From assembly GCF_003790525.1 (NCBI RefSeq), contig NZ_CP033635.1: DNA of 64,000 bases; one strand, 5' to 3'. Every line of letters starts with the position of its first letter. The first letter of the stretch is position 1. A model generated the notes under the pieces. That model was not told the DNA's origin. It was given only the letters and a program-made list of their open reading frames with translations, and ran no database searches. Position numbers and translations under genes: made by a program. Below are positions 7,146 through 14,543 of this stretch, one piece after another. The stretch is from Escherichia coli. Lineage in GTDB: Bacteria > Pseudomonadota > Gammaproteobacteria > Enterobacterales > Enterobacteriaceae.

Positions 7146-8705
7146 TTACTTGATATCTTTCACGCGCATACCGTTGATCTGTTCATCCGTGATGGTGTTA
7201 CCCGCTTTGAAGTAATCAACCACGGCGTGATAAACGTAATAACCGCCCGTTGTGTTACGCGCTTTCCCTTCGGTAAAGGCGGTAAAACCATCTCCACCAT
7301 CAGCAAGGAAACTCTGAGTAGCAATGTGGTAAATCGTCGCATCTTCAATGGGTTTGCCATTCAGAGTCAGCGTGATTACCCGCTGACCAACCGGCTTACT
7401 GCTGTCGTACTTCATTTCCAGGCCTTTCGATACCTGTAAAACGCCATTACTCAAACTTGCGCCGTGTTCCATCAAACTGCGTAATTGTTTACCCGTGAGA
7501 TCCATCGTCACCAGTTCGTTGGGGAACGGGAAGGTACTGATGACGCCACCCATCGTAATTGCACCCGCCGGGATCTCATTGCGAATCCCGCCAGAGTTGG
7601 TTAACGCCAACTGGGTATTTTTACCCGCCGCTGCCAGCAAAGCGTCTGCCGCCAGGTTCCCGAGAGAAGCTGATTCACCATAGGCACGTTTTAGTTCAAC
7701 CGGCGATTGCGCCACCGTTTGTTGCACGACTTCATCCAGCTTTTTGTTCCAACTATCAATCACCTGTTTCGTTTGCGGATCGGGCTTCCACTCATCGGCG
7801 TAAAGGGTTTTAAGCTCGAAGTTTTTCACCGTAAAAGTGTGCGGCTTCTCTTTGTAGTCGAGAACCAGTTTACCGACATCAATCCCGCCGCTGTCAGTGG
7901 AGAGGATTAACGTATTGCCGACTTTAATCGGTTCCGGCGTACCCACATGTGCATGCCCGGTGATCAAAATATCCAACCCTTTCACCTGACTTGCCGTCTG
8001 AATATCTTTATCCAGTGCGCGACGCACATCCGTGCCTCCCATACTGGACTGGCGGGCCGGAACACCTTCGTGGATCAGGGCGACGGTTAGATCAACCTTG
8101 CCTTTGAGTTCATCGATATAACGTTGTAGCCATTTAATTTCATCACGCGCCTCAATACCCACTCGCGTTGCCGCAGATACCGTATCATTAAAGGCAAATA
8201 CACCGTGCAAACCAATCACGCCAATTTTCACGCCGTCTTTTTCAATGATGGTATAGGGCTTATCCCAGAATGATTTACTGCTGTTCTGATAAAAAACATT
8301 ACCCTGCACAATCGGGAATTTTGCCTGACTCAACTGTAATAACGTATTGTCCCAGCCGTGATCAAATTCATGATTACCTATAGTGACCGCATCGAATGGC
8401 ATGGTATTCATAATATCGATAATCGCCTTGCCTTTAGTCAGGCTGCTGATATACGGTCCGGTAAAATAGTCACCCGCATCAAAAAACCAGGTCGCTTTGT
8501 TTTTAGCTTTTTCTTGTTTAACAAGCGTAGTGATATTTGCCCAGCCGCCAATATCCCGTTTACCGTCAGCAATCCACGGCACTTTATAAGGCTCTACATG
8601 TGCATGGAGGTCGTTGGTATAAATGATGGTGACATCTTTGGCGCAAGCCCAAAACGGCAGTGTTAATGCGATACCCGCAGCAAGCATTTTAATTTTCATA
8701 AACAA
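7146..8705 (-). CDS. Secreted bifunctional metallophosphatase/5'-nucleotidase (UshA/YfkN family) paralog A
   Basis: Signal peptide then [33 protein letters not shown] metallophosphatase motifs and a C-terminal 5'-nucleotidase substrate-binding region. Confidence 0.85.
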
Positions 8706-8831
8706 TCCCTTCCAGTGAGATAAAGGATTGCTACATTACGTTCTGAAAGGCTTTTTTATGTGAGAATACTCACATCCAGAGGCGATAACTGTAGGACAAA
8801 ATCAACGACCTTATGAAATCGTTGGTGATAT

Positions 8832-9959
8832 ATGTCAAATCTGTTTGCGATTAATGTCTGTAAAACGTTCGGTTGTCGAAATTTGGGATTGGCCTCATCG
8901 GAAGATTACAGTTGGCCAGACTATAAACTGGGTTTTCCGGCACTGCACTGCCAGGCATGCGGAAGTTACCCCCCTTTGTTTGATGAACAACAATTTCGTG
9001 ACTGGTTGTCAGTTCACATGACTGCGTGTGCCATAGAAACAGGGCATTTTTGTCCATCATGCTATTGTAAAGAAAAGATTTTTTATGGCCACAACCCGCA
9101 GGGAACACAACGCGTTCAATGCCGTTCATGCAAAAAAGTCTGGACTCCGAAACAGCAGCCAGCAAGAGAAATTACGTATCCCCAGTCCATTGAAACCGTT
9201 CAACTGTTCATGCCCTTTCAAGGAGCCAGCGCAGTACAAAAGCTCTATGTTTTAGTCAGTCTTGACGCCACTCGTGGCAACATCCTTCATCTCTCCACGA
9301 ATTATACGCAACATCAGACAGGAGACAGTCTGCGGTACAGTTACAGAGGCAATACAGAACCAACTGAGCACCATAGCGATATTGTGCAGAGGGTAGATAT
9401 GCGTGAAGCGCAATTCTTGCGCCGGAGCCAGTTCGATGAAATTCAGTATGGCAGTGCTGTGCTCAAGCGCAACGGCAAGGGAGCCATACTACGCCCGGTT
9501 ATCACGGCACACGGGCATTTCAGAATACTGAAAATCCGCTTTCCACATGTCAAAACGCATATCATTTCACACGAATGTTTTCTGAGAGGCGCAATTATTA
9601 CAGCCTGGGCAGATCAGTTCCGCCAACAACAAGGCGAACTTTGGTTCGTAGAAGAAGAAATCAGCGACCGTAACGCTGATATTCCCTGGCATTTTCAGGG
9701 AACGACATACCATGGTTGGTGGCAAAATCAGTGGCAACGCTGGGGGCAGGGGAATAACAGCAAGATGGTCTGCCTGCTCACAGGAGTCTCCTTAGAAAGG
9801 GGCGCAAATGTTTCTCTGGCAACCAGTCGTTGCTTTATCACATGGCTGACAGACCAACACGACTTTACCCAAAGCGCGTTATTATCCGCAGGTCGCGTAA
9901 CGAAAATGCTGACCTCACTGGCGTTAAAATACAATGAATCGCTCACTCCATCTTGTTAG
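8832..9959 (+). CDS. Hypothetical Cys-rich protein with putative N-terminal zinc-ribbon
   Basis: 375-aa ORF; N-terminus has paired CxxC motifs (CQAC, CPSC, CRSC); no family confidently recognised. Confidence 0.55.
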   Translation: MSNLFAINVCKTFGCRNLGLASSEDYSWPDYKLGFPALHCQACGSYPPLFDEQQFRDWLSVHMTACAIETGHFCPSCYCKEKIFYGHNPQGTQRVQCRSCKKVWTPKQQPAREITYPQSIETVQLFMPFQGASAVQKLYVLVSLDATRGNILHLSTNYTQHQTGDSLRYSYRGNTEPTEHHSDIVQRVDMREAQFLRRSQFDEIQYGSAVLKRNGKGAILRPVITAHGHFRILKIRFPHVKTHIISHECFLRGAIITAWADQFRQQQGELWFVEEEISDRNADIPWHFQGTTYHGWWQNQWQRWGQGNNSKMVCLLTGVSLERGANVSLATSRCFITWLTDQHDFTQSALLSAGRVTKMLTSLALKYNESLTPSC

Positions 9960-10188
9960 TCAATACACTCGACAAACGACCATAAATTAATGGGATCACT
10001 ATTTCTCATTTAATTAAATATATGAATATATGACTGAAAAATATAATCACAGTCAATGTTTAATTAATAACATTATTTGTTACCAAGATCACATAATACT
10101 TTCCTGACCTATGCTTACATAAAAATAAGACACGGTGTTCCTTTTATTTAAATAATTCAACCAATGTAACAACCCCTATCAAGGAGGG

Positions 10189-11741
10189 ATGATGAGAACT
10201 GTATTTACGACTTTATCAGTCATATTCAGCGTGATGTTTTCTCACAGTATACTAGCTCAGGACGTTACTATTTATTATACGAATGATATTCACGCACATG
10301 TCAATCCGGCAAAAATTCCCGCTGTTGATAAGAACAGACTTGTAGGTGGTATGGCTAATATTGCAGGCATCGTTAATGAAGCGAAGAAAAAAAACAAAGA
10401 TGTCTTTTTCTTTGATGCAGGCGACTATTTTACCGGTCCGTATATCAGTACCCTGACCAAAGGTGAAGCTATTATTGATATCATGAACACCATGCCCTTT
10501 GATGCGGTGTCCGTTGGTAATCACGAGTTCGATCACGGCGTGCCCAATATGGTATCTCAGTTATCAAAAGCAAAATTCCCCATTCTGCTGGGAAATATTT
10601 ACTACACCGATACAAATAAACCAGTTTGGGATCATCCGTGGACCATTATCGAAAAAGATGGTTTAAAGATTGGTGTGATTGGATTGCATGGTGCATTCGC
10701 TTTCTATGATACAGTCGCGGCAAAAGCACGTGAAGGCGTAGAAGCCAGAGACGAAATTAAATATTTAAATAAAGCACTTGCAGAATTAAAAGGTAAAGTC
10801 GACATTACCGTTTTGCTAATTCACGAAGGTGTTCCGGCGCGTCAATCAAGCTTTGGTAGTAAAGATGTGGAGCGGCTACTACAGGCAGATATTGAGACAG
10901 CTAAAAAAGTGAATGGTGTTGATGTCTTAATTACCGGTCACGCACATGTCGGAACACCGCAACCAATAAAAGTTAATAACACATTAATTGTATCTACCGA
11001 TGCATACGGCACCGACATCGGAAAACTTGTGCTTGATTACAATCCGAAAACAAAGAAAATTGATAGTTATAATGGTGAGTTAATCACCATCTTTGCAGAT
11101 CAATTTAAACCTGACACCATCGTTAAAATACTATCGATAAATGGAGCGTAAAGCTTAACAAAATAACACAGGAAGTTGTCGGCCATTCTCCCGTAGTTTT
11201 AACACGTGAGTATGGCAGTTCTTCTTCTACCGGTAATCTTATTCTGGATGCAATGATGGAAAAAACACCTGATGCCATTGCCGGATTTCAAAATAGCGGT
11301 GGGATGCGAGCTGATTTTCCTAAAGGTGATATCACACTGGGAGATGTTATTAGCACATTCCCCTTTAATAATGACCTCATCGAGATGGATTTGACGGGCC
11401 GCGATCTCAAATCGTTGATGACGCATGCAACCAATCTAACTAACGGTGTGTTACAGGTTTCAAAAAGCGTTGCGGTTGTCTATGACAGCAAAAAACCACT
11501 CAACCAACGGTTAATCTCTTTCACCATTAACGGCAAACCCGTGGAAGATAATCAAACATATCGTATTGCCACGCACTCCTTTTGTGCCAGTGGTGGTGAC
11601 GGTTTTGAAGCATTTTTGAATGGAAAAAATGTGAAGACGATACCGGGAACAACCTCGGCGGAATCTATCATCGATTATTTCAAAAATCATAAACCTGTCA
11701 CCCCAGACTTAACTAAACGAGTCATGGACGTCGCCAAATAA
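10189..11741 (+). pseudogene. 5'-nucleotidase paralog B, split by a frameshift
   Basis: Metallophosphatase domain ORF 10189..11151 and 5'-nucleotidase C-domain ORF 11253..11741; the C-domain frame stays open back to ~11127 and aligns with paralog A (IDKWSVKL vs IDSWNKKL), so a 1-nt indel near the A-tract at 11121-11130 is implied. Confidence 0.65.
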
Positions 11742-11775: not shown

Positions 11776-13401
11776 ATGCGAATGAAAACAGTGCAGCGTA
11801 CTTTACTTGCCGCAACATTGCTGACTATTTTTTCGGTCTCAGTCATGGCGCAGGATGTCACGATTATTTATACAAATGATCTTCACGCTCATGTGGATTC
11901 TTATAAAGTGCCGTATATCGCAGACGGAAAACGCGACATTGGCGGCTTTGCCAATATATCTACTTTAGTAAAACAGGAGAAAGCGAAAAATAAAGCCACC
12001 TTTTATTTTGATGCTGGAGACTATTTCACCGGCCCTTATATCAGCAGTCTGACAAAGGGCGAAGCAATAATTGACATTATGAATACCATGCCTTTTGACG
12101 CAGTATCAATCGGTAATCATGAGTTTGACCATGGCTGGGATAATGCCCTGCGACAATTAAGCAAAGCGAATTTTCCTGTTTTATTGGGCAATGTTTATCA
12201 TAAAGAGAGTGAGAACCCCTTCTGGAACAAGCCCTACACCATCCTGGAAAAAGATGGCATCAAGATTGGTATTATTGGGCTACACGGCGTATTTGCATTT
12301 AATGATACGGTCTCGGAGCTCTCTCTCCAGGGACTCGATAATGACAATAATAACCGCTTTGATAAATCTTCCGAGACCCTTAAGAATCAGGGGATTGAAG
12401 CACGTGATGAAGTGAAGTATTTGCAGCATTATATCGACGAGTTACGTGATAAGGTTGACCTCACTGTGGCGCTGGTTCATGAAGGCGTTCCGGCGCGTCA
12501 GTCCAGCATTGGCAATACAGATGTTAGACGCGCTCTTGATAAAGATATTCAAACCGCTAGCAAGGTGAAAGGATTGGATATTCTGATTACCGGGCATGCC
12601 CACGTCGGAACGCCAGAACCAATCAAAGTCGGCAACACCTTAATCCTTTCAACTGATAGTGGAGGTATCGATATTGGTAAATTAGTCCTTGATGTCAACC
12701 CTACAGCTCGTACCCATAAAATGAAGAGCTTTGAGCTGAAAACAGTTTATGCCGATGAATGGATACCCGATCCAACGACACAAAAAGTTATCAATGGCTG
12801 GAATAAAAAACTGGCGGATATTGTACGCCAACCAGTGGGTGAATCATCGATTGCATTAACTCGCGCCTATGGTGAGTCATCGCAACTAGGCAACCTGTTT
12901 ACCGATGCAATGCTTGTCGCTGCTCCGACTGCACAGATTGCATTGATAAACTCCGGCAGCTTACGTGCGGATATAAATGCAGGCACGATTACCTTTGGCG
13001 ACATTACCAGTACATTCCCCTTCAAGAATGAACTTACTGAAATGGATCTCAGCGGTAAGGATCTGCGTAACCTACTGGAACACGGGGCATCGCTTACCAA
13101 TGGCATCCTGCAAATGTCAAAAGGCGCAGAAATGCGCTATACCCCGCAGAAACCAGTAGGTCAGCGCATAGTATCTTTTAAAATTAATGGTGAAGAGATC
13201 GTTGATACGAATATTTACCATGTTGCAACAACGACTTTCCTTGCACTGGGGGGCGATGGTTTTCTGGCATTCAAAGAAGGGAAAAATGTTCAGGTCCGCG
13301 CCGGAAATAACATGTCCGATGTCGTGATCGATTATTTGAAGAAAGGCCACAAGATTACGCCTGCACAGGTAAATGAAATGCGGGTGGACGTTAGCAAATA
13401 A
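11776..13401 (+). CDS. Secreted bifunctional metallophosphatase/5'-nucleotidase (UshA/YfkN family) paralog C
   Basis: Signal peptide, same motif set as paralog A, with an extra D/N-rich insertion (DNDNNNRFDKSSETLKNQG). Confidence 0.85.
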   Translation: MRMKTVQRTLLAATLLTIFSVSVMAQDVTIIYTNDLHAHVDSYKVPYIADGKRDIGGFANISTLVKQEKAKNKATFYFDAGDYFTGPYISSLTKGEAIIDIMNTMPFDAVSIGNHEFDHGWDNALRQLSKANFPVLLGNVYHKESENPFWNKPYTILEKDGIKIGIIGLHGVFAFNDTVSELSLQGLDNDNNNRFDKSSETLKNQGIEARDEVKYLQHYIDELRDKVDLTVALVHEGVPARQSSIGNTDVRRALDKDIQTASKVKGLDILITGHAHVGTPEPIKVGNTLILSTDSGGIDIGKLVLDVNPTARTHKMKSFELKTVYADEWIPDPTTQKVINGWNKKLADIVRQPVGESSIALTRAYGESSQLGNLFTDAMLVAAPTAQIALINSGSLRADINAGTITFGDITSTFPFKNELTEMDLSGKDLRNLLEHGASLTNGILQMSKGAEMRYTPQKPVGQRIVSFKINGEEIVDTNIYHVATTTFLALGGDGFLAFKEGKNVQVRAGNNMSDVVIDYLKKGHKITPAQVNEMRVDVSK

Positions 13402-13478: not shown

Positions 13479-14339
13479 ATGTGTATAAAAAAGCACGGGA
13501 TAGCTTTATCGATTCTATTAATACCTTGCATTGGAAACGCTCAGGAAATTAAAAGTGAGGAAGGCTGGTTACATCAAAGCTTGAATGTCATTGGTCGCAC
13601 AGACTCTCGCTTTGGCCCAAGGCTGACTAACGACCTCTACCCTGAATATACTGTAGCAGGAAGAAAAGACTGGTTTGATTTTTATGGTTATGTTGATCTA
13701 CCAAAATTCTTTGGCGTCGGCAGTCACTATGATGTTGGGATCTGGGATGAGGGCTCACCACTATTTACGGAAATAGAACCTCGGTTTTCCATTGACAAAT
13801 TGACCGGATTAAATCTTGCGTTCGGCCCTTTTAAAGAATGGTTCATTGCAAACAACTATGTCTATGATATGGGTGACAACCAGTCATCCCGGCAAAGTAC
13901 ATGGTATATGGGGCTTGGTACAGATATCGACACGGGTCTACCAATTAAGCTTTCTGCCAATATATACGCCAAGTATCAGTGGCAAAACTATGGTGCCGCT
14001 AATGAAAATGAATGGGACGGATATCGATTCAAAATAAAATATAGCATTCCTCTTACCCATTTATTCGGAGGGCGATTGGTATACAATAGTTTTACTAACT
14101 TTGATTTTGGCTCCGATCTTGCGGACAAATCACACAATAATAAACGAACCAGTAATGCTATTGCTTCAAGCCATATCCTTTCCCTGCTATATGAACACTG
14201 GAAATTTGCATTTACACTACGTTATTTTCACAACGGTGGACAATGGAATGCTGGGGAGAAAGTTAACTTCGGAGATGGTCCATTTGAATTAAAAAACACA
14301 GGATGGGGAACCTATACTACTATTGGTTATCAATTTTAA
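13479..14339 (+). CDS. Tsx-family nucleoside-specific outer-membrane channel paralog
   Basis: Signal peptide; [64 protein letters not shown] blocks match E. coli Tsx as I recall it; C-terminal aromatic residue. Confidence 0.85.
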
Positions 14340-14519
14340 ATCAGGTGATGTTTTAGATATTTTTACTTAATGCCATTTTGTAATTGTCATAAATAACTTC
14401 ACCATTCACACTGTGAATTCATCGCTCAACACAAAAGCCCCCTTATTACCGGGGCACTGACCAAAGGCAAAATGACAATCAATCACCACCTCCGCAGGAG
14501 GTGGTTTAGAGGTGACAAC

Positions 14520-14543
14520 AAAAGCTGGCAACTGCCAGCTTTT
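14520..14543. terminator. Bidirectional hairpin at the metL 3' end
   Basis: aaaagctggcaactgccagctttt palindrome directly downstream of the metL stop. Confidence 0.55.

Follow-up and report, generated by a model that had tools for sequence, protein, structure and literature searches.

Within a 64,000-nucleotide stretch of Escherichia coli DNA (NCBI RefSeq assembly GCF_003790525.1, contig NZ_CP033635.1), referred to here as the window, the open reading frame (ORF) at positions 8832–9959, designated X, very probably encodes an anciently domesticated, non-catalytic relative of the IS1 transposase. X lies beside a gene for a periplasmic 5'-nucleotidase (nucleotidase A), and its linkage to such genes, together with the architecture of the promoters between them, made regulation the best-supported function. 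Specifically, X may act as a regulator through a CAAC-containing element in combination with CRP, a role suggested by comparison of sequences and for which we judge the chances to be evenly balanced. An earlier interpretation made from the letters of the window alone (the sequence-only reading) had proposed, in general terms, a regulator of the local gene island, and that proposal stands as an unproven candidate.

The ORF runs from ATG to stop on the + strand and encodes 375 amino acids. Its ends were identical to those of a RefSeq coding sequence (CDS; WP_000067197.1, product 'hypothetical protein'), which bears out the cysteine-rich ORF described previously, and the region 8600–10200 was 100% identical to E. 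coli SMS-3-5 (NC_010498.1). X is a genuine gene and not a chance ORF, because more than 250 homologues were found, the ratio of non-synonymous to synonymous substitution rates (dN/dS) was 0.08–0.13 among E. coli alleles and also between genera (with dS saturated), and the AlphaFold2 model had a predicted local distance difference test score (pLDDT) of 94 and a predicted template-modelling score (pTM) of 0.93. The family is small: in a set of 1.84 billion proteins it had 123 representatives when clustered at 50% identity. Its members have been labelled 'cytoplasmic protein', 'InsA N-terminal domain-containing protein' or 'IS1 family transposase' in databases; the last of these is wrong, and its correction is due at minimum. 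Literature searches (Salmonella locus tags, domesticated IS1, transposase-derived regulators) found no study of the family. The features recognised in X were:

8832–9959, + strand: CDS of X, a probable domesticated IS1-like transposase homologue (ORF, RefSeq CDS, homologues, dN/dS ~0.1, AlphaFold2 pLDDT 94)
8853–8969, + strand: zinc ribbon 1, residues 8–46 (N8, C10, C15, C40, C43; family-wide conservation, short beta strands in the model)
9045–9146, + strand: zinc ribbon 2, of IS1 InsA type, residues 72–105 (C74, C77, C97, C100; Pfam, NCBIfam, hhalign and models)
9180–9623, + strand: RNase-H-like core (DDE-transposase fold), residues 117–264, with no D-D-E triad
9624–9956, + strand: four-stranded beta insertion with GWWxNxW (W296, W297, W301), then a C-terminal helical bundle (Y367–N368; model and conservation)

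Three CxxC pairs had been likened by the sequence-only reading to the zinc-ribbon N-termini of some transposases. These pairs were located at residues 40–43 (CQAC), 74–77 (CPSC) and 97–100 (CRSC) and are conserved in the family, while C10 and C15 complete the first ribbon. Among 50 diverse members, C10 and C15 were each conserved in 92%, C40 and C43 in 94%, C74 in 82%, C77 in 98%, and C97 and C100 in 100%. When X was searched alone, sequence matches were weak and fell entirely within residues 74–136; these comprised the NCBIfam model for IS1 family transposases (NF033558; E = 4e-4, 20.4 bits against a cut-off of 100, model positions 1–62), a PHROG transposase family (E = 0.0027), the IS1/IS1595 zinc-binding domain of NCBIfam (IS1_IS1595_Zn; E = 0.026) and Pfam Zn_ribbon_InsA (E = 0.043). 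Across the family the signal was greater; Zn_ribbon_InsA was matched at E ≤ 1e-3 by 7 of the 50 members (best E = 1.4e-7), and three relatives reached or passed the IS1_IS1595_Zn cut-off. Comparison by hhalign of the X family profile with IS1A InsAB', a sequence assembled from IS1A in the K-12 record, aligned InsA residues 5–87, that is, the ribbon plus the helix-turn-helix (HTH), with a probability of 96.5% (E = 1e-9). By these sequence comparisons, an InsA-type C4 zinc ribbon is predicted to be present, clearly at the level of the family and weakly in X alone.

The InsA-like HTH that follows the ribbon has been lost in X and its enterobacterial clade, and is kept by longer relatives. The HTH columns of the alignment were gapped in X and its close enterobacterial relatives (375–391 amino acids), while long relatives (450–520 amino acids) retained approximately 70 residues there. 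In the model of one long relative (P0161, pLDDT 93.5) three helices occupied residues 108–161; the model of X had coil at 105–118, where the long relatives have the HTH. The segment around ribbon 2 was strongly basic, with a charge of about +7 over residues 74–112, as read off the sequence.

The model of X resolved residues 117–264 into the order b1 (119–128), b2 (137–145), b3 (151–156), a1 (184–197), b4 (218–220), a2 (222–236), b5 (242–246) and a3 (249–264), which is the b1-b2-b3-a1-b4-a2-b5-a3 succession of the RNase-H-like, DDE transposase-integrase fold, and the closest structural matches of this core were IS1, IS6-like and Mutator transposases. DDE enzymes carry their first Asp on strand b1 and their second at the end of b4. 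Among the 50 members, no position of strand b1 was acidic in more than 18% of sequences, and T122 was present in 78%; the end of b4 in X was R221/P222 and not Asp; and position 248 was the only one that was always acidic. The first two acidic positions of the DDE triad are lost from the X family, to judge by these alignments. Conserved positions were T122, R198, D202, P222, H229, H247, E248, W296, W297, W301, Y367 and N368. A DDE domain had been thought unsupportable in the sequence-only reading; the fold was found, in the AlphaFold2 model, and the triad was absent from the 50 members. As regards origin, the resemblance to transposases suggested in that reading proved correct.

Profile searches added little for this half of the protein. 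Residues 117–375 had no match in Pfam or NCBIfam, and the DDE families of Pfam, including DDE_Tnp_IS1, matched neither X nor its family members even at E ≤ 10. A sequence profile search of the PDB was uninformative for the C-terminal domain, as its matches were all C2H2 zinc fingers that reflected cysteine bias. Since hhalign of this domain against the single IS1 InsAB' sequence gave no alignment past the InsA part, it is the fold that relates the core to the IS1 DDE domain.

The conserved His, Glu and Arg residues of the family are clustered around the former active site, and X could on this evidence be a cytoplasmic enzyme that processes nucleic acids or nucleotides, or a protein that binds RNA, in which the RNase-H-like fold is reused around a new active site (H229, H247, E248, D202, R198), with imported nucleosides or nucleotides, or its own leader RNA, as the substrate. 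In many vibrios the X gene and the nucleotidase gene share an operon, which would suit such an activity. However, similarity to a characterised enzyme was found in none of the Pfam, NCBIfam and PDB profile searches, and the N-terminal module of X corresponds to one that binds DNA in its relatives, being the DNA-binding repressor module in IS1 (PMC12428005). The genes linked to X, which are described below, also encode periplasmic or membrane proteins of several kinds and are a better fit to a regulator. We consider an enzymatic or RNA-binding role decidedly unlikely.

By blastn, the X ORF was present in 1841 of 5426 complete E. coli genomes (34%), at exactly one place in each, which was chromosomal in 1839. 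Identity to X was ≥99% in 97 of these genomes, ~92% in 561 (including LF82) and ~75–77% in 1175, with alleles at 80–90% in eight further genomes. The site between metF and metL is shared by Escherichia, Citrobacter, Klebsiella oxytoca, K. pneumoniae and Pseudocitrobacter; beyond those genera the nucleotidase/X pair occurred at other sites. In the searches that named organisms, the family was confined to Enterobacterales, Vibrionales/Vibrionaceae and a few other gammaproteobacteria, and its carriers included Klebsiella pneumoniae, Salmonella, Citrobacter, Enterobacter and many vibrios. The properties by which a domesticated transposase may be recognised, namely single-copy orthologues, conserved synteny, purifying selection and the loss of mobility functions, were all found for X.

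The sequence-only reading had also entertained the idea that X was the relic of a mobile element that delivered the island, and an active or recently decayed insertion sequence (IS) transposase might be seen in the combination of zinc ribbon and transposase fold, in the label 'IS1 family transposase' used by some databases, in the low G+C content of the island between metF and metL (0.39–0.46, versus ~0.52–0.54 in its flanks), and in a 16-nt imperfect inverted repeat (I10) that brackets X. However, a check of the flanks of X found no terminal inverted repeats of transposon type, and the sole bracketing repeat was rejected as transposon ends, being a duplicated promoter segment shared by the oppositely oriented nucleotidase paralogs A and B. 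Further evidence against an IS lies in the single copy of X in each of the 1841 E. coli genomes, its conserved synteny and purifying selection across genera, the missing DDE triad, and a score for the IS1 model far below the cut-off. The island comprises nucleotidase A (− strand), X (+ strand), nucleotidases B and C (+ strand) and a Tsx-family channel gene. Because most E. coli carry just nucleotidase A and X, without B, C or Tsx, X is not a leftover of the arrival of the extra genes. An origin of X as such a relic is therefore very improbable indeed.

Two further observations concerned the carriers of X. Four pairs of loci (L018 and L020, L013 and L030, L032 and L042, L033 and L045) represented genomes with two diverged X paralogs, each accompanied by its own nucleotidase. 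PADLOC gave no match for X, nucleotidase A or three relatives of X, and a role in anti-phage defence was set aside.

Co-occurrence of X with nucleotidase genes in other genomes, put forward earlier as a check, was examined in a scan of one genome per species that recovered 39 loci. A 5'-nucleotidase gene was the immediate neighbour of the X family gene in 35 of these; the other four were fragments or were interrupted by contig ends. The two genes were divergent, with a spacer of approximately 130 bp, in all Enterobacteriaceae and in some Enterovibrio and Vibrio, and lay on the same strand, nucleotidase first, in most Vibrionaceae. Other X subfamilies were divergent from nupC and a purine/uridine phosphorylase gene (PNP), or divergent from nupC-deoC-deoA-deoB-deoD and adjoining TatD and a Bmp-type nucleoside ABC transporter, or were situated at the end of a tsx-sulfatase-maturase operon. 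The linked partners belong to the periplasm (an enzyme), the inner membrane (a transporter), the outer membrane (a channel) and the cytoplasm (catabolic enzymes). As the partners are so varied within one pathway, X is more likely to be a regulator than an enzyme of that pathway. One E. coli locus (L020) had four nucleotidase genes and tsx beside the X gene. A very distant member (P0224, locus L055; 645 amino acids, from a high-G+C metagenome contig) shared the layout of ribbon, HTH and core, and there were no nucleoside genes on its 4.6-kb contig; for this reason, the most distant members, and those outside the gammaproteobacteria, may lack the linkage.

The divergent transcription of X and nucleotidase A noted previously was upheld, and the spacer that separates them measured 132 bp. 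Across genera this spacer was conserved more than the coding sequences, and it contained two elements:

8759–8774, no strand assigned: perfect CRP core, TGTGAGAATACTCACA (TGTGA-N6-TCACA); the sole match in the window, where 0.08 were expected, and conserved in other genera
8803–8826, − strand: CAAC element, candidate operator, reading ACCAACGA...TCGTTG on the − strand; one occurrence in the window, where 0.04 were expected

The positions of −10 elements and their distances from the CRP site were read by eye off the sequence. For nucleotidase A, a TAATGT −10 element (8738–8733, − strand) predicts a start ~40.5–41.5 bp downstream of the centre of the CRP site, and for X the site was ~42 bp from a CAAAAT −10 element (8797–8802). 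With its start so predicted, the nucleotidase A promoter has a class II CRP arrangement, in which CRP is centred near −41.5.

The CAAC element takes the form of a palindrome, CAACGA-N10-TCGTTG, at 8803–8824, immediately next to where translation of X starts (ribosome-binding site and start codon); its arms were nearly invariant in 18 enterobacterial loci. In the direction of nucleotidase A, the distance from the first base of CCAAC down to the CRP site is exactly 51 nt. An equal spacing, with CAAC 51 nt upstream of a CRP-like site, was observed in 20 of 31 nucleotidase promoters, with a spacing of 50 nt in two more and one-base variants of the core at 51 nt in another five; in shuffled sequences, at most two loci coincided at any one distance. 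Loci obeying the 51-nt rule included vibrio operons with the X gene downstream of the nucleotidase, and the 46 nt that intervene could not be aligned between the groups. Two loci at which the X gene accompanies nupC also conformed, each having TCAAC followed after 51 nt by CGTGATTGCGATCACA (L006) or CGTGACTTGAGTCACG (L053). The nupC, deoC and tsx promoters of E. coli K-12, a strain without the X gene, had no CAAC at 51 nt from any CRP-like site. Since nupC loci obey the rule and the K-12 promoters do not, the CAAC element tracks the X family and not nucleoside promoters generally. Identification of the element as a second, distal CRP site or as an IHF site was not supported when the sequences were inspected by eye.

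The form of the element differed between groups. Vibrio loci, which encode long proteins with an HTH, had ACCAAC-N7-GAAACT, and enterobacterial loci, with HTH-less proteins, had the palindrome of two CAACGA half-sites. The form of the element thus seems to follow the protein; speculatively, recognition may have switched from a monomer using ribbon and HTH to a dimer using the ribbon only. CCAAC was also found at nucleotides 11–15 of both ends of IS1, which may be a relic or a coincidence, given that only a 5-mer is shared. The notion that the host took over an IS1-type DDE transposase along with this piece of its terminal repeat, the one as a transcription factor and the other as the ancestor of its CAAC operator, we hold to be doubtful. 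The two would work with CRP, at the fixed five-turn spacing, on periplasmic nucleotidase, nupC and deo genes of Enterobacterales and Vibrionales, and the dead catalytic pocket would serve as a nucleoside or nucleotide sensor. If this were so, no bacterial DDE transposase before X would have been shown to be domesticated into a regulator of metabolism.

The palindrome could instead act as RNA, which would favour the RNA-binding role for X considered above. The leader of X can form an 8-bp stem of eight conserved pairs, in which changes on the sense strand were one-sided and G-U-compatible only. There were no double changes in the alignment, and as no change occurred on both sides, an RNA hairpin is indistinguishable from a DNA palindrome. 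However, given the −10 element predicted at 8797–8802, the transcript would begin downstream of the left arm, and the leader had no match in Rfam.

Other palindromes accompanied the CRP-like sites of some Vibrionaceae. Upstream of the nucleotidase at L037, L039, L042, L043 and L045, a PurR-box-like sequence, GCAAACG(T/A)TTGC, was present beside the CRP-like site, and in L039, L042, L043 and L045 it was directly upstream of it. This similarity of sequence suggests that those nucleotidase operons may be under purine-repressor control.

As to a regulatory role, X has a basic InsA-type ribbon but no HTH, and a candidate operator tracks the family. Under the proposed mechanism, X would bind the CAAC element five helical turns upstream of the class II CRP site, and X and cAMP-CRP together would tune transcription of the adjoining periplasmic 5'-nucleotidase; in relatives, the targets would be nupC, deo or tsx operons. 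As the element overlaps the promoter of X and its ribosome-binding site and start, binding at the palindrome would also make X autoregulatory in divergent loci. The disabled pocket (R198, D202, H229, H247, E248) or the Trp-rich hairpin might, speculatively, serve in the sensing of nucleosides or nucleotides, or in oligomerisation.

Several points weigh against X being a domesticated transposase that regulates in this manner. The D-D-E positions were mapped solely by the order of secondary structures. In IS1, the zinc finger and the HTH are both required for binding to the ends (PMC12428005), and direct DNA binding by the short, HTH-less X is uncertain for that reason. Neither covariation nor compensatory changes were seen in the palindrome to reveal its nature. 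An additional regulator is not strictly needed, because many Vibrio loci already have PurR-box-like and CRP-like sites. Finally, another host factor could bind the CAAC element, as it resembles the half-sites of CytR.

These last considerations, with the loss of the HTH from the enterobacterial form, can be combined in an account that retains X as a domesticated transposase but has CytR or another host regulator bind the CAAC element, X having another role in nucleoside salvage, for example as a cofactor or anti-regulator that contacts CRP or CytR, or as a cytoplasmic sensor or adaptor that does not itself bind DNA. Optimal CytR sites have been given as GCAAC-N10–13-GTTGCA (PMC3454398), and both CAAC-N14-GTTG in the window and CAAC-N11-GTTG at L006 resemble such operators with long spacers. 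However, CytR normally binds directly beside or between CRP sites (PMC3454398), not ~25–35 bp away; the K-12 promoters controlled by CytR and CRP (nupC, deoP, tsx) lack CAAC at 51 nt from their CRP sites; and the fixed 51-nt spacing accompanies the X gene across target genes and taxa. Binding by CytR or a similar factor in place of X is unlikely, if somewhat less so than an enzymatic or RNA-binding role, and X itself is preferred as the candidate ligand of the element.

The remaining genes of the island were delimited as follows:

7146–8699, − strand: 5'-nucleotidase paralog A, a periplasmic metallophosphatase/5'-nucleotidase and divergent partner of X (RefSeq, NCBIfam, adjacency in 35/39 loci)
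10189–11741, + strand: 5'-nucleotidase paralog B, split by a 1-bp deletion near 11125 (ORFs, RefSeq)
11776–13401, + strand: 5'-nucleotidase paralog C (ORF, RefSeq, NCBIfam)
13479–14339, + strand: Tsx-family nucleoside channel gene (NCBIfam NF011686, 491.8 bits against a cut-off of 311, residues 2–286 of 286)

Nucleotidase B is represented in the window by two ORFs (10189–11151 and 11253–11741), while RefSeq has an intact protein of 516 amino acids. The window has one C fewer than NC_010498.1 at 11120–11130 (CGTTCAAAATAC -> CGTTAAAATAC), which is either a difference of strain or version, or else a sequencing error. The spacer between X and nucleotidase B (9960–10188, 229 bp) is very AT-rich, and in it the promoter segment of nucleotidase A recurs in degenerate form (TTACATAAAAA vs TCACATAAAAA); no CAAC element was found at its 51-nt position. 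The Tsx ORF has the C-terminal Phe typical of outer-membrane proteins, yet RefSeq flags it as a partial pseudogene that is missing its C-terminus. A probable bidirectional terminator lies between this gene and the 3' end of metL, in the form of a perfect inverted repeat of 14 nt whose arms flank a 2-nt loop (14517–14546; AACAAAAGCTGGCA / TGCCAGCTTTTGTT).

The locus also appeared to be mosaic when positions 8700–8835 were compared with L003 and L016. Nucleotidase A of SMS-3-5 was 97–99% identical to that of other E. coli, but the X protein was just 72–73% identical, and divergence began in the spacer around the CRP site; at L016, the leader sequence was as in the window and the X protein was 72% identical. 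Because of this disparity between the two genes, the sequences point to putative recombination breakpoints in or near the spacer.

To our knowledge, the recruitment of DDE transposases by their hosts is common in eukaryotes and almost undocumented in bacteria. We know of no bacterial transcription factor derived from a DDE transposase, and a search of the literature for bacterial domesticated DDE transposases as regulators found none. The known bacterial domestications, RAYT and TldR, belong to other enzyme classes; X, by contrast, is a DDE/IS1-type protein linked to a promoter element phased with CRP. If its proposed role is true, X would reveal an unrecognised layer of control in the scavenging of nucleosides and extracellular DNA by gut and marine pathogens, and would provide a tractable model for how a transposase and its binding site turn into a regulator.

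In comparison with known systems, X is closest to IS1. InsAB' and InsA share with the X family an InsA-type C4 ribbon, followed by an HTH in the long relatives of X, and an RNase-H-like C-terminal core, IS1 transposases being among the best structural matches. InsA is itself a DNA-binding transcriptional repressor, and X at most works like InsA. Unlike IS1, X is a single uninterrupted ORF with no −1 frameshift; it has an extra N-terminal zinc ribbon, no HTH and no conserved D-D-E, and its core is followed by a large beta insertion and a helical bundle; and it lacks terminal repeats and occurs once per genome, in a fixed chromosomal context. X is not an IS1 transposase, since of the features that define that family it has only the zinc ribbon and the general fold.

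CytR/CRP control of deoP2, nupC, tsx, udp and cdd resembles the X loci in its nucleoside theme, in a strong CRP site and in a second factor, putative at the X loci, at a fixed distance. The half-sites are CAAC/GTTG at X and GCAAC/GTTGCA for CytR. CytR is a LacI-family protein that sits beside or between CRP dimers, whereas the X loci have one CRP site with the element 51 nt upstream of it, in an arrangement that occurred only where the X gene was present and was missing from the CytR promoters of K-12.

Among domesticated proteins, TnpA-REP/RAYT is described as the first prokaryotic domesticated transposase (PMC8266576). RAYT, like X, is a single-copy transposase relative fixed in the bacterial chromosome, but it is of the HUH/Y1 (IS200/IS605) type and catalytically active on REP sequences, whereas the fold of X is of DDE type and lacks the catalytic residues, and X is linked to a single promoter. 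The TldR proteins of enterobacteria are reportedly nuclease-dead repressors derived from TnpB (Wiegand et al. 2024), and as such would parallel the role proposed for X, being transposon-encoded proteins that lost catalysis and were recruited to regulate specific host genes in Enterobacteriaceae. They differ in their origin from an RNA-guided nuclease and in being targeted by a guide RNA, whereas X descends from a DDE transposase and has no evident RNA partner. FHY3 and FAR1 are transcription factors derived from Mutator-like elements. Although these are eukaryotic, unlike X, they match the course of events envisaged for it, in that a transposase DNA-binding domain was retained and the catalytic core was kept as a scaffold in a protein that took the role of a transcription factor.

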